Source: a virus
Reading direction: 5' to 3' (one strand)
DNA: 64,000 bases
IMG/VR virus record: IMGVR_UViG_3300020429_000529
Location: 390,762 to 454,761 of that record
Shown: positions 59,777-64,000 of the stretch, piece by piece
Position numbering within the stretch: position 1 is the first letter of the stretch
Layout: every line of letters starts with the position of its first letter
Position numbers and translations under genes: made by a program
The notes under the pieces: generated by a model
Told to the model about the DNA's origin: nothing
The model's database searches: none
What the model saw: the letters and a program-made list of their open reading frames with translations, nothing else

Positions 59777-60652
59777 CACTGAATCAGATACCCCAACCCC
59801 CTCTTCCACTGAATCGGGAAATGCTGCAAAAACACTGGTAAACCTTGTAGCAAATCGTCTGACACTGAATGGCAAAACGAAATCAGGTTTACCAAAACGA
59901 AAATCGATAACACTGAATGGAATGACAAATGTTGTAAGATGCTGGGAAAAGTTGGAGATTCATGGGAATCTCTCCCACTCTGCCCCACTCTGCAACACTG
60001 GTAAATGTTACGGGAAGATTTGATATGGCTCATAAGCTGGAAGACTTGCAGACAGGATTCCCTTTTCTCCATGAAGGTCAGACATGGATGAAGCTGACAG
60101 ACGGTCCTGCGACCTGTCGAGCGACTCCTATCAACGGAGAGGGGAAGGGAGTCATCCATGCTCTGCCTGCAAACGAGATGGTCGAGATGGGCATCGGTCT
60201 GGACGACCTCGAACATGCTATCGAGGAGACCTACCAGAAGTTGCTGGCTGAGGGGACTGAGGACAGCACGGTCAACGAAAAGCATACATCGTTGATGAGG
60301 TTGCTCTCGATCGGAGCGGTCATCGAGAGAGTCGTCAGCATGGCTCAGAGGATCTCGGAGAATACGGCCCATATGGGGACGGAAAGCAGGAAAGAGTAGA
60401 TACTCTGATACTGCTCGTGTGCCGCGACATCTCTGACCTGAACTGTCTCTCCGAAACCTGAAACAAAAACAACTCAGGTTTGCTTTTCACCTGCTGACCT
60501 GGAATCGGCGTCTTGTGGCACTGAATGCCGATAAGCTGGTAGGAGGCACTGAATGAGAGTACGAGGCGTATACATCCGAGGTCACAAGTATCTGCCCGAT
60601 TTGCAGGTAAACTTTCAACAGTTCGATGGCACTGAATCGCATGGCACTGAAT
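59777..60652 (+). repeat. 8 same-strand copies of the octamer CACTGAAT (plus 2 copies of ACACTGGTAAA)
   Basis: Copies start at 59777, 59807, 59853, 59910, 60519, 60547, 60630 and 60645. The last four are GGCACTGAAT; one overlaps the SD/ATG of the ATPase and two lie inside its 5' coding region. Confidence 0.7.
60025..60399 (+). CDS. hypothetical protein
   Basis: ORF inside the motif-rich region. Confidence 0.45.
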   Translation: MAHKLEDLQTGFPFLHEGQTWMKLTDGPATCRATPINGEGKGVIHALPANEMVEMGIGLDDLEHAIEETYQKLLAEGTEDSTVNEKHTSLMRLLSIGAVIERVVSMAQRISENTAHMGTESRKE

Positions 60653-61227
60653 GGGTCACATCGATCCTCGGTCCCAATGGCTCTGGCAAATCGATCATCA
60701 GCCAAGCCATTGCCTGCGCCTTCGCTGGCTCAGTACGAGAGGAGGGCGCTCCTTGCACTGTTTCGGCTGACCTGGTACGAGTAGACTTCGAAGTAGACAA
60801 CGCTGTCATCGCTGCCCAATCCTTCCGAGGGAGGTTCGACAGACATAGCGCCATCGCCGCTCGCTTCGACTCGAAAGGTAAGCATGGCGTTATGATGTAC
60901 GACCGCAATCGGCTGGCGATGGACGTACCAGGAAACTATACAGGCCTCAAGGTCATAGTGCCTATCCTTGCTGACATCCATCTCCGTTCCTTGGAGGACA
61001 GCGTTGTCGTCATCGACGACTTCGACCTGGGGTTGGATGCTTCATTGCGCGGGAAGTTTTTCAAGCACCTTCGGTCTCATCTCCGTCCTCGGCGCAACCA
61101 GTTGATTCTGACTGCGCGGGAAAAGATAGGTGAGATGTATGAGGTGGTGTTGCCTGAGGGACGGGATGTCATGGAGGACGCGATGCGGGAGGTCAGTCTG
61201 CTGGGTAAGAGGCCTGCATCTTCTTGA
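60553..61227 (+). CDS. compact ABC-type / SMC-like ATPase (AAA_21/AAA_23-like)
   Basis: Walker A ILGPNGSGKS near the N-terminus; Walker B / D-loop VVVIDDFDLGLD. AGGAGG RBS with a 6-nt spacer. Confidence 0.65.
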   Translation: MRVRGVYIRGHKYLPDLQVNFQQFDGTESHGTEWVTSILGPNGSGKSIISQAIACAFAGSVREEGAPCTVSADLVRVDFEVDNAVIAAQSFRGRFDRHSAIAARFDSKGKHGVMMYDRNRLAMDVPGNYTGLKVIVPILADIHLRSLEDSVVVIDDFDLGLDASLRGKFFKHLRSHLRPRRNQLILTAREKIGEMYEVVLPEGRDVMEDAMREVSLLGKRPASS

Positions 61228-61903
61228 TGTCATCGATGTAGGGGAGCTTGAACTCATCCTCATGACGGATGATCTTGAACGGCAATCCCCAGTTCAGTCT
61301 GAAGACGTTCTCCGCCAAGCGAGCGACTCGGTTCGAGCCGTCTTGGAACGGCTTTATGCAGCAGAGCCTCAGATTGATCTCGTAGGCCTTCTCGACGAGC
61401 GCTTCGATGTCGTCTTCGTTGAGGAGATGCGGCTGTTCTATCTTTTCCCGATTGGCATCATGGAAGTTTGCGATGTTGAGCAGGAGGTCGTAGAGGTGTT
61501 GTTTGATGGAGTAGGGGTTGGGCATCTCTGTTTCTGAGACCCAGTGTCTTGCTTCGCGCCAGCGTCCGACATCTGATGGATGTATGACGTTTTGGTCTCC
61601 CATCATGTAGCCTTGTTCGGCGACGGACTTAAGCAGGTTTTTGTGAAGTTTTTTGAGCCAGTCGAACTGGTCCATGGCTGTGTAGATTTTGACATCTGCA
61701 GCAGATGGGATCAGGTCTGGATCTGCTGCGAGCGATTTGACCAGGTTGAGGCATTTGAGTTGGCCTTCCACGTGCGGGTGGATTTTGGAACCTGACATTG
61801 TATCATCCAGGTCTTTTTTGAAGAGCGGGATTCTCTCGATTCGGGTCGAGTGGAAGGCAAAGGCAACTTGGTGGTCTCTTGATGGATTTGGGAACCTGCG
61901 CAT
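61193..61903 (-). CDS. Fic/Doc-family-like protein with degenerate motif
   Basis: CIKPFQDGSNRVARLAE against Fic HPFx(D/E)GNGRxxR. P, F, D, G, R, R are conserved but the catalytic His is Lys. Confidence 0.5.
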   Translation of the reverse strand: MRRFPNPSRDHQVAFAFHSTRIERIPLFKKDLDDTMSGSKIHPHVEGQLKCLNLVKSLAADPDLIPSAADVKIYTAMDQFDWLKKLHKNLLKSVAEQGYMMGDQNVIHPSDVGRWREARHWVSETEMPNPYSIKQHLYDLLLNIANFHDANREKIEQPHLLNEDDIEALVEKAYEINLRLCCIKPFQDGSNRVARLAENVFRLNWGLPFKIIRHEDEFKLPYIDDIKKMQASYPAD

Positions 61904-61932
61904 GGATTGTGTATCGGCAGGTAAGGGGTATC

Positions 61933-61997
61933 AAAGATAGGTGCAGAGTTCGGGTTGGTAGTCAAAGATAGGTGCGCGGGAAAATGAAGATAGGTGC
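61933..61997 (+). repeat. 3 direct repeats of AAGATAGGTGC at 25-30 bp spacing
   Basis: Copies at 61934-61944, 61965-61975 and 61987-61997. Confidence 0.6.
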
Positions 61998-62950
61998 AAT
62001 CTGGTAGTGCCTGACCGGAACCCCTTGCTGAGAGGAAGGGGACGTAGATGGCGGAGGGCGTCAGATGTCGGGATGTAGCCCTGGGGGAGAGGGCTCCTCG
62101 ACGAGGCAGACTCTTCTGAAGGGGTTGTTCCCCAGGGCGCAACCCTGACAGCCTGGCCGTAAGAAGACATCAGCCCGATGACGCCATCGAGATGCTGATG
62201 ACGTTGCTCAGGCGTCAGGATCCGGATGTCGCTGAGGGCTCGGGGTTGCACTGTTTTGCACTGTTCGCACGTGACGCATGTGCTTCAGAACGGCCTTCAG
62301 AGGCTCTGAAGACGGTTTTGGGGTCTCGTGCGGTTGAGTGTGCGCAGCGAGCCTGAGGCACTGTTTGCTCGTCGAGGTACATCGGGATCCTGAGGCGGAG
62401 GAGACGCTCCTCAAGGAGGCGGGCTGAAGGACCAAGGAGAGATGGCTCTTCGGGCTTCTTCAGGCTCCTCGGGCTGTATGTGCGGTCCTTCAGGCGACGT
62501 AAGTCGTTGGTCTTCAAGGACTTGTAGCACTGTTTGCTACTGAGAAGGCGGCCTTCAGATGCCGTACATGAACCGAATCGGGAGGTCTCTTGGTCGGGAG
62601 AATGGGACATCTCTTGGAGTATCCTGCTGGCCGACGCAGGCGATTAGGGTTTTGAGGGGTCTCAGGTTGGCTCAGGTTGGGCGCTGAAGAGTTTCGTAAG
62701 TCGTTGCTGCAGCGGGGTTTACGTCTTTCTGAGGAGCCAAGAAGAGAAAGGAGCGGGCTTCAGCCGGCTGGCCGCCGGCTCATCTCTGCTGAGATGGGTA
62801 AGATCTTGGCTCGCAAATGTGCCAGAAGAGGGCTTCTGGGGCGAATAACGGCAGTTGGCTGCTCGTTGCGGGTGATGTCTTTGGGGGCTACGATCACATC
62901 CAAGGACGGAGCGGAGGAGACATCTCCGCCGTCAAGAAGCGAGGACAGCT

Positions 62951-63643
62951 ATGACCAAGAAGACTACCGAGAAGGGCAAAGAGACGTATTTGGACCATGC
63001 TGCTGAGGCCTCAAGGCCGATTTCGCAGCGGAAGCCCGTCAGTCAGGGGAGGCAAGGCACGCTTCCTCCTCGGCGTCATCATCTCCTTCCGGATCAGCAG
63101 GATGAGCTACTGAAGCGGATGGCGGACGACGGGGGCTTCGTCAGCCCCTACAAGCGGTTCGGCGCTTACGACGGTCTCGTCATGGCTCTGGCTCGTCTGG
63201 GCGAGAATGAGAGCCACGCTCTTGGTCAAGTCTTGGGCGAGTTCGAGCGGTACATGTCTGACGAGGACTCGAAGGACGGTCGGGATCGGACGGCATGGGA
63301 CCGCTTCAGGGATAAGAAGAGTCGGAGCGAGAAGACGGGCCTCGACCACATGGGTCGTCTGAAGCAGAATGTGACGGTCCTTCAGCGGATGGGCGGCGAG
63401 CATCCTTACGCCTTGAAGTTGGCGCAGCTTGGTTGCTGCGTTGACATCATGAAGGGCGAGCGAGGGGAGTTCAGGGTTCGTCTTCGTACTGGGGTTCCTA
63501 TTGGGGACGACATCGTGCCGAAGAACGAGTTCCGCAGCAGGGATTGTCCGAGGTCTGTTATGGCCCTCCGCAGTCAGATGAGGTTTGCTGGTACGACTTC
63601 GCCGTCGAGGGGGCCGGTCAGTGACGGTTCGGGAAAAGACTAA
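62951..63643 (+). CDS. hypothetical protein
   Basis: ORF, higher GC. Confidence 0.45.
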   Translation: MTKKTTEKGKETYLDHAAEASRPISQRKPVSQGRQGTLPPRRHHLLPDQQDELLKRMADDGGFVSPYKRFGAYDGLVMALARLGENESHALGQVLGEFERYMSDEDSKDGRDRTAWDRFRDKKSRSEKTGLDHMGRLKQNVTVLQRMGGEHPYALKLAQLGCCVDIMKGERGEFRVRLRTGVPIGDDIVPKNEFRSRDCPRSVMALRSQMRFAGTTSPSRGPVSDGSGKD

Positions 63644-63775
63644 AGAGGGACGGTCGCAGGTGGGGTTCCATCGAGTATAAAGGTGTGCGGTCGAATCTCG
63701 GCTCTGCCACTGACGGCCAACGGCTGTCGGCAGAGTCGTTCGACTTACAGGCACTCTCAGATGGAGAATCCCCAA

Positions 63776-64000
63776 TGCCCCGTACCTCAACTCGACTGAG
63801 GGAAGAAACCCCCAATCTTCCCAACGACCACCTCATTCAGGACATGATCGCCAGTCTCGGCATGAACAATGACGAGATTCTCGCGATCCTCTATAGGCGA
63901 GAGCAGAACGTCGATTGCATCATCGACGGCGCTGTTCTGCATCCCGAGACCGGCAAGCCGATGAGCCGCGCCGATGCGCTGGAGTTGCTCGATCTTGACG
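63776..64000 (+). CDS. hypothetical protein, 3'-partial (runs off the window)
   Basis: MPRTSTRLREETPNLPNDHLIQDMIASLGMNNDEILAILYRR...; open to the window end. Confidence 0.45.

Follow-up and report, generated by a model that had tools for sequence, protein, structure and literature searches.

Conserved, oriented 13-mers in a long non-coding gap between a Fic-family gene and a replication/repair module of a very large marine phage-like genome

Results

We analyzed a 64,000-nucleotide stretch of DNA (here called the window; positions 390,762 to 454,761 of IMG/VR record IMGVR_UViG_3300020429_000529) that is part of a very large uncultivated marine phage-like genome, with attention to the region at 61904-62950, for which a reading of the letters and their open reading frames (ORFs) alone had proposed a non-coding, repeat-rich origin or terminus (the original prediction). 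This region of 1047 bp is exactly the gap between the ATG of a Fic/DOC-family gene on the minus strand (61903, a start backed by alignment with relatives) and the ATG of a plus-strand gene (62951) for a 230-amino-acid protein, p230; the window has no longer stretch without genes on our crude gene map. Its left edge carries an array of same-strand repeats with a 13-bp core, its right edge a putative promoter of p230, and about 800 bp of G-rich, hairpin-rich DNA fill the space between. The 13-mers are conserved, oriented and regularly spaced, and they are probably, judging from these features of sequence, protein-binding sites.

The region is non-coding, as the original prediction had held. Codon-usage scores of all candidate ORFs are negative (-0.31 to -0.004, against 0.04 to 0.51 for real genes), no frame stands out, and there is no periodicity. 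No ORF of the region matched Pfam or PHROG, and the largest one (131 amino acids, called by some pipelines) matched only itself in an exhaustive HMMER search of 1.84 billion representative proteins. A conserved ORF overlooked because of a frameshift, which the original prediction had named as the result that would overturn it, was also sought in related loci: their gaps contain no gene, nor did tblastx among them reveal a conserved peptide there. Since TGA accounts for 46 of the 66 stops (70%) and prevails in each of the six frames, the TGA-only look of one minus-strand frame is not significant. A hidden, frameshifted or recoded gene was rejected on the strength of six-frame stop maps, a check for TGA/TAG recoding, codon usage and the Pfam/PHROG, tblastx and HMMER searches. 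The predicted rise in GC content is real (0.58) but not specific to the region, as downstream genes reach 0.57 to 0.69. The GC skew of the whole gap is +0.24, and the plus strand of the gap is G-rich in all relatives; positive skew is frequent in intergenic regions of this clade.

The relatives comprised seven other members of the p230 family (43 to 64% identity) and the matches from a DNA pattern scan of JGI metagenomes (L032, L033 and L035); L033 and L035 have the same sequence, and L013 and L033 are duplicate assemblies, leaving nine distinct relatives. p230 is readable in eight of the nine, with pairwise identities of 36 to 64%, and that of L015 is 36 to 43% identical to all others. The gene order of a small ABC-type ATPase, Fic on the minus strand, p230 and a RecA-fold ATPase is kept wherever a contig covers both genes. 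The gap between Fic and p230 is far from constant, measuring 272, 286, ∼353, 364, 364, ∼366, 378, 552 and 626 bp in the relatives versus 1047 bp in the window.

What these gaps have in common at their left edge is the repeat array. In the window it spans 61931-61997 and consists of three same-strand 13/14-bp repeats, TCAAAGATAGGTG(C), starting at 61931, 61962 and 61984 on the plus strand with spacings of 31 and 22 bp; the three direct repeats of the original prediction are found here as AAGATAGGTGC (61934-61944, 61965-61975 and 61987-61997), with TCAAAGATAGGTGC as the extended unit. A half-repeat-like box on the same strand, GTGCCTG (62007-62013), follows 6 to 10 nt past the last full repeat and stands at the matching position in L011, L017, L020 and L023, hence in five lineages with the window. 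The array begins 28 nt from the Fic start codon (12 to 28 nt across lineages). Of the nine distinct relatives, eight (L011, L014, L017, L019, L020, L023, L032 and L035) keep one to four copies of TCAAAGATAGGTG at this position, where the commonest spacing is exactly 20 bp. Only the 13- to 14-bp core of the repeat is conserved; the spacers are not. Orientation is strict, in that the seven gaps counted hold 16 plus-strand copies and no reverse-complemented one.

In the lineage with the most divergent p230 (L015/L016), the array position is occupied instead by five copies of TGATTATGATT, one further copy of which lies within the upstream ATPase gene. A second box, (T)TGCGCGAAAAA, accompanies the array, within it or next to it, in most relatives, L015/L016 with its exchanged repeat among them; the window's version is degenerate (GCGCGGGAAAA, 61974-61984), sits between the second and third copies and is fused to the latter.

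The 13-mer is also found singly outside the gap. One lies in the 3' part of the ATPase gene both in the window (61123) and in L014 (4451), where it is written in the same codons, AAG ATA GGT G, despite a protein identity of only ∼28%; in the window the composite box GCGCGGGAAAAGATAGGTG thereby recurs at 61114-61132. Others lie inside Fic in L014 and L019, at different positions, and upstream of a gene for a MutL-like GHKL ATPase in two lineages (L001 14640 and L011 8078), and one comes directly after the last gene of a tRNA-Leu array (L001 20397). All outlying copies are same-strand, and those at the MutL-like gene and after the tRNA-Leu array are on the transcribed strand. In the ∼74 of 498 kb of this genome that we analyzed, namely the window and a further right-hand stretch (L001), the 13-mer has six copies in total, which fall in a stretch of 12 kb; no further exact copy occurs in the remaining 61 kb of the window. 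A scan of IMG/VR for paired 13-mers returned only unrelated tandem or coding repeats, and the genomes matched in a scan of GTDB lack homologous proteins. An unrelated contig of a Planctomycetota metagenome-assembled genome (JAZDFP010000122.1, L042) has at least 12 units of ∼22-bp repeats with the same AAAGATAGGTG core at 5571-5757; no homologue of p230, Fic or the helicase is encoded within 8 kb of them, and they are possibly an independent iteron array or a coincidence.

We considered whether the repeats hide a sigma-70 promoter of Fic and rejected this, as the spacings are unsuitable and the sole scan match would start transcription within the ORF. By inspection, no fixed -10-like element follows the 13-mers.

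The right edge of the region is a conserved proximal block of ∼135 bp (62815-62950, plus strand) with a putative promoter, a 5' untranslated region hairpin and a ribosome-binding site. The putative sigma-70-type promoter of p230 consists of a -35 element TTGCGG (62866-62871), a 17-nt spacer and a -10 element TACGAT (62889-62894); the hairpin (62905-62933, z = -3.4) and the ribosome-binding site GAGGA (62941-62945) follow on the same strand. Some 80 nt of this block (62815-62894) resemble L017 (blastn) and L019, and a local alignment of ten lineages gave the pattern C(A/G)GGTG-N13-14-TAnnAT, ∼40 to 70 nt ahead of the ATG, which is present in seven relatives. Homologous sites 37 to 71 nt from the ATG were returned by a promoter scan in L014, L020, L023 and L032, with clearer versions in L014 (TTGTCA-16-TAGAAT), L023 (ATGACA-17-TACAAT) and L020 (TTGATT-18-TATCAT). 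Because the window's own site scores only 7 of 12, its assignment as a putative host-type promoter of p230 is by homology. An AGGTG half-site lies within its -35 region.

The expanded central spacer (62014-62814 on the plus strand) accounts for most of the excess length and bears many short boxes. The region as a whole has 20 repeated 10-mers; all other 1047-bp windows average 2.6 and have at most 19, and 500 dinucleotide shuffles gave 1.2 ± 1.4 without once reaching 20. Several repeats named by the original prediction were recovered in this spacer, some of them in adjusted form. The 17-bp palindrome CTTCAGAGGCTCTGAAG is perfect at 62295-62311, and CTCAGGTTGG is tandemly duplicated at 62661-62680. 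The CCTTCAG/CTGAAGG boxes, part of a set of GGCCTTCA/CTGAAGG boxes in the spacer, amount to five exact 7-mers (62116, 62294, 62424, 62487 and 62552); of the window's 46 CTTCAG/CTGAAG hexamers, 10 fall in the region, where ∼0.75 would be expected from the window's density. The four-fold GCACTGTTTGC, of the GCACTGTT(T)(T)GC type, comprises two exact copies (62358 and 62527), a third that carries a mismatch (62258) and a fourth with one inserted nucleotide (62248), which are the GCACTGTTT(G/T)GC boxes; in the 64-kb window all copies of GCACTGTTT are on the plus strand and fall within 60755-62527. Further elements are CGTAAGTCGTTG (62498 and 62695), two TCGGGAG boxes (62578 and 62595), GGGGTTTA (62714), hairpins at 62021-62041 and 62066-62150 and an 18-bp inverted repeat (62212-62229/62379-62396) that closes a 185-nt domain.

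This centre has no counterpart in the short-gap relatives and cannot be aligned between relatives, only the two edges being alignable. It nevertheless shares distinct 8-mers with gaps of relatives: 22 with the gap centre of L019 (shuffles, 9.3 ± 3.8; 0 of 300), 28 with that of L020 (shuffles, 7.3 ± 3.6; 0 of 300) and 11 with L015 (shuffles, 1.5 ± 1.5), and coding controls show no such excess. The boxes in common with the longer gaps are GCACTGTTTG, GGCCTTCA/CTGAAGG, AGTCGTTG, two copies of (A)TCGGGAG, and GGGGTTTA; they often form tandem pairs and are partly collinear, but in the intermediate-length gaps of two relatives they come in another order. The L020 form of GCACTGTTTG is GCACTGAA(T/G)GG, with ∼10 copies on both sides of Fic. 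No second copy of the region was found in the window or the related loci, nor any terminal-repeat or target-duplication signature. A mobile-element insertion, including a miniature inverted-repeat transposable element, was rejected, since the 15% of the genome that was searched has no other copy, terminal inverted repeats and target duplications are lacking, and the centre shares boxes with the homologous gaps. The centre rather looks like a box-bearing spacer that was enlarged, in a lineage-specific manner, by local duplication of short boxes, and not like foreign DNA.

The centre also folds more stably than expected. A 901-nt segment has z = -4.2 and the 200-nt domain at 62203-62402 z = -4.1, compared with +0.8 to -2.9 for control segments of 900 nt, and the folding excess is ∼35 kcal/mol on either strand (8 to 24 in most control segments). 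This equality of the two strands points to Watson-Crick inverted repeats in the DNA and not to a strand-specific RNA signal. A search of the window and 10 related loci with Rfam 15, whose models included GOLLD, ROOL, HEARO and OLE, returned only tRNAs at the gathering score; up to an E value of 10, the best subthreshold matches had E values of at least 1.9 and were to microRNA and small nucleolar RNA models. ARAGORN found nothing in the region. The long non-coding RNA locus offered by the original prediction, for which it had itself suggested an Rfam scan, thus matches no known family.

The Fic gene (61193-61903, minus strand, 236 amino acids; Pfam Fic, 1.5e-7) is one of very few minus-strand genes in the window and stands inside a long plus-strand block. 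It resembles the defence-type PDC-S04/SoFic and converges with a small, truncated-looking gene for an ABC/SMC-type ATPase (60553-61227, plus strand, 224 amino acids; Pfam AAA_21/AAA_23, AriA/PtuA-like in PADLOC), which also carries a GCACTGTTT box (60755). The 3' ends of the two genes overlap by 35 nt. Every relative with a contig extending that far retains this pair, possibly as a defence or toxin module. In L014, a gene of the IS605 OrfB/TnpB type with a Cas12f-like TNB domain (1281-2435) lies ∼3 kb upstream of the Fic locus.

To the right of the region, p230 (62951-63643, plus strand) belongs to a family without an assigned function. Its model has a weak winged-helix-type fold, with TubR among the weak winged-helix matches, and no match to known Rep or initiator families was obtained. 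It is followed by the RecA-fold ATPase gene (63776-64000, plus strand; 439 amino acids, running off the window; Pfam AAA_25), whose product matches both PHROG 19, "DnaB-like replicative helicase" (3.7e-10), and RadA/Sms in the PDB (6e-9). Further downstream are genes for a possible PD-(D/E)XK protein, the MutL-like GHKL ATPase, an ankyrin protein (in relatives) and a metallophosphoesterase. In the spacer between the p230 and helicase-like genes, a near-perfect hairpin of ∼23 bp occupies 63690-63745 (DNA fold, -19.2 kcal/mol; z = -6.1). It is tRNA-like in look (GGTCGAATC...GCCA), was called by neither ARAGORN nor Rfam and has no T-run after it.

The window as a whole is dense in genes, mostly on the plus strand, which include GroEL, RtcB, polynucleotide kinase, PRPP synthetase and a TilS-like PP-loop enzyme. 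The p230 protein occurs in identical sequence on contigs from many ocean samples, two of which are 498,610 and 498,546 bp long. The latter (ENA ERZ840537, NODE_1) begins at window position 61930 and finishes at 61984, so that its own ends overlap by 55 nt within the repeat array; the genome thus closes as a circle of 498,491 bp, which is also represented in ENA by ERZ17089788, NODE_1289088; 498,610 - 119 gives the same figure, as a matter of arithmetic alone. The 15 copies of the locus that we fetched come from many ocean samples and show 100% identity wherever they cover it (up to 2.1 kb). No similar DNA was found in GenBank phages, and an IMG/VR search returned no close relatives of the two proteins flanking the region.

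Two other features of this genome were recorded. About 10 kb right of the window's end, L001 19388-20392 holds six consecutive tRNA-Leu genes with five anticodons (tag, gag twice, caa, cag and taa), the array whose last gene is directly followed by a 13-mer. The 10-mer GCGCGAAAAA is over-represented, with six exact copies in 64 kb versus 0.18 expected, and more than one copy was seen in none of 100 shuffles. Its sites (window 2081 [-], 21431 [+], 42317 [-], 49348 [+], 49971 [+] and 56034 [-]; L001 15112 [-] and 19150 [+]) are mostly intragenic and on both strands, often with a CT-rich run just before. Most relatives have one plus-strand copy in the gap between Fic and p230, and another copy lies 238 nt ahead of the tRNA-Leu array.

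Discussion

We tentatively read the region, with somewhat less than even confidence, as protein-binding control DNA of the operator/iteron kind, lying divergently between Fic on the left and a replication/repair module on the right. This module would run rightward and comprise the winged-helix protein p230, the DnaB-like ATPase, the MutL-like GHKL ATPase and the phosphoesterase. The three 13-bp sites and the half-site would most likely be filled cooperatively by a phage-encoded, sequence-specific protein, for which p230, judging from its modeled fold, is the candidate and prime suspect. Because the array lies 28 nt from the Fic start and extra sites lie beyond and inside Fic and at another gene of the module, we infer that occupancy may repress or loop out Fic and co-ordinate the module, including the promoter of p230 itself. 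An operator set with a small regulon is favored because the array sits atop the Fic start, extra sites are conserved, among them one ahead of the same unrelated gene in two lineages, and the p230 promoter contains the AGGTG half-site. The central boxes are probably auxiliary binding sites or merely tolerated spacer, and the same nucleoprotein complex could also serve as a replication origin. A hidden gene is probably not present, and a dedicated RNA gene is unlikely.

Several observations do not sit easily with transcriptional control. Repeat and protein co-vary in one switch only, that of L015, while L035, whose p230 is just 42 to 49% identical, keeps the motif. L014 and L015 lack the site ahead of the MutL-like gene, and the promoter scan gave no recognizable promoter for Fic. 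Moreover, 1 kb is unusually long for a control region, and the reason for the 800 extra bases in this lineage is unexplained.

An iteron-type replication origin, as proposed in the original prediction, is possible but doubtful in our view, and we kept it as a separate main rival because no origin-specific test was positive. Here p230 would be an initiator that binds the 13-bp repeats, melts the DNA and recruits the DnaB-like helicase, the distal copies would serve copy control or pairing, and the hairpin-rich centre would serve priming or helicase loading. The part of the proposal that stands is a conserved iteron-like array beside winged-helix and DnaB-like genes. Its tandem direct repeats and half-site have an approximate register of 20 to 22 bp (a less regular 31 and 22 bp here; one to four copies, commonly 20 bp apart, in relatives), it lies directly upstream of the genes for p230 and the ATPase, and its repeat is swapped in the most divergent lineage; the longest gene-free gap of the window, the excess of inverted repeats and a local change of sign in GC skew nearby would also suit an origin. 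However, an AT-rich unwinding element is missing: the lowest GC content in any 40 nt of the region is 0.42, and where the gaps of relatives reach 0.25 to 0.40 over 40 nt, they do so only around a TTTTGCGCGAAAAA box or the promoter. A DnaA box (TTATCCACA, with up to one mismatch) occurs in the gap of neither the window nor the nine relatives, which is weak evidence. p230 fits no known Rep family, the ATPase is as near to RadA as to DnaB, and copies of the motif stand upstream of an unrelated gene in two lineages. Nor did the skew analysis that the original prediction had suggested favor an origin within the region: run on the same 74 kb, it placed the cumulative minimum at ∼59.9 kb, ∼2 kb to the left and at a gene-block boundary, and this turn is not the global minimum within the window, being not below the window's start and having no long negative arm leftward. 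Since clear bidirectional skew is seen in about 30% of huge phages (PMC7162821), a skew test carries information only if it covers the complete genome. Transcriptional control accounts for the observations at least as well as an origin does.

Could the rightward transcript itself be functional? A long structured non-coding RNA or leader, or a G-rich transcript whose R-loop primes DNA synthesis, driven from the 13-mers as phage-specific promoter elements in tandem, would explain why the conserved boxes are all on one strand, why that strand is G-rich in all relatives, why the centre and its 200-nt domain fold so stably and why the 13-mer also stands upstream of other plus-strand genes. We consider this unlikely, since the minus strand has the same folding excess, no Rfam family matches even at the relaxed threshold, the centre is missing from most relatives and unalignable among the others, p230 owns a conserved proximal promoter, and no fixed -10-like element follows the 13-mers; the commonness of positive skew between genes of this clade further weakens the argument from G-richness. 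In its boldest form, in which the three 13-mers would fire a G-rich, hairpin-rich non-coding RNA of ∼0.9 kb whose R-loop or structure primes or licenses replication of the half-megabase genome, the proposal would amount to an origin activated by transcription or to a sort of large regulatory RNA so far undescribed in megaphages, and it seems to us improbable. That the central ∼800 bp are functionless, be it a decayed gene, a mobile-element remnant or slippage filler between functional edges, would agree with the short gaps of 272 to 378 bp on which relatives function, with the many very local tandem duplications and with the lack of a coding signal. This too is quite unlikely, given the boxes shared significantly with L019, L020 and L015 and the complete identity of all fetched copies; as to its source, the orphan ORF has no homologue, and neither a copy elsewhere in the window or loci nor a terminal-repeat or target-duplication signature was found. 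A packaging (pac/cos), partition (centromere) or attachment site is the least probable explanation and a very improbable one. Pac sites and parC/tubC-type centromeres typically contain clusters of short direct repeats, and TubR is among the weak matches of p230, but the surrounding 20 kb encode no terminase, no ParA/ParM/TubZ-type NTPase and no integrase, and the downstream ATPase is of the RecA-fold, DnaB/RadA-like kind, with no match to ParA, actin or tubulin families. Contigs from many samples span the region, two independent assemblies of ∼498.5 kb run through it without an end, and one closes on itself inside the array, which argues against the packaging or attachment region that the original prediction had also offered.

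To our knowledge, almost nothing is known about the start of replication and the timing of early genes in uncultivated phages of ∼500 kb. The locus offers a testable handle on both: its 13-bp site is conserved, the candidate binder is a winged-helix protein from a new family, the putative host-type promoter is conserved as well, and the gaps form a natural series from 272 to 1047 bp. Should the array prove to be an origin, genome maps of a cosmopolitan marine megaphage and estimates of its replication rate could be anchored to it; an operator set would define a small regulon of a Fic toxin-type gene and the replication/repair module.

Iteron origins with an adjacent initiator gene are familiar from phage P1 (oriR-repA-incA), from lambda (ori/O) and from the IncQ plasmid RSF1010, whose oriV has 3.5 iterons of 20 bp and works with RepC and the RepA helicase. 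Like these, the region has same-strand tandem repeats in a register of roughly two helical turns that end in a partial copy, adjoins genes for a putative DNA-binding protein and a RecA-fold, DnaB/RepA-like ATPase, and has extra distal copies and a repeat sequence that varies between diverged lineages. In contrast to them, its core is just 13 to 14 bp in one to four copies with unconserved spacers, it has no AT-rich DNA unwinding element and no DnaA- or IHF-type boxes, p230 is not recognizable as Rep, O or RepC, the array is ∼950 bp from the p230 gene, and single copies stand upstream of an unrelated gene.

Tandem repeats that begin 12 to 28 nt ahead of a toxin-type (Fic) start codon also recall type III toxin-antitoxin systems such as ToxIN, in which tandem RNA repeats lie directly upstream of the toxin gene. 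We rejected this parallel, because conservation is limited to a 13-nt core and does not extend to a whole unit of at least 34 nt, copies stand upstream of other genes, the toxin is Fic and not a ToxN/AbiQ endoribonuclease, and no terminator separates repeats and gene.

Short oriented boxes are also known as activator sites and at transcription-activated origins, such as the MotA-box middle promoters and ori(uvsY) of T4 and the tandem phi1.1A/B promoters at the primary origin of T7. The region is similar in that a short oriented box stands upstream of several DNA-metabolism genes and tandem copies head a module, followed by a non-coding stretch, but it has neither a -10 at a fixed distance nor an AT-rich segment downstream, and we identified neither MotA/AsiA nor a single-subunit RNA polymerase in the window. 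The stoperators of mycobacteriophage L5 and its kind are 13-bp asymmetric repressor sites that are scattered in one orientation relative to transcription, and they share with our motif the length, the asymmetry, the strict orientation, the intergenic and intragenic positions and the combination of dispersed copies with a cluster in a control region. The differences are that our six copies in 74 kb are confined to 12 kb, that the genome is huge and lytic-looking and that no repressor homologue was identified. The type of element, an array of short repeats for protein binding, is thus a familiar one, and it is the protein family, the motif and the cosmopolitan marine host genome of ∼0.5 Mb that are new.

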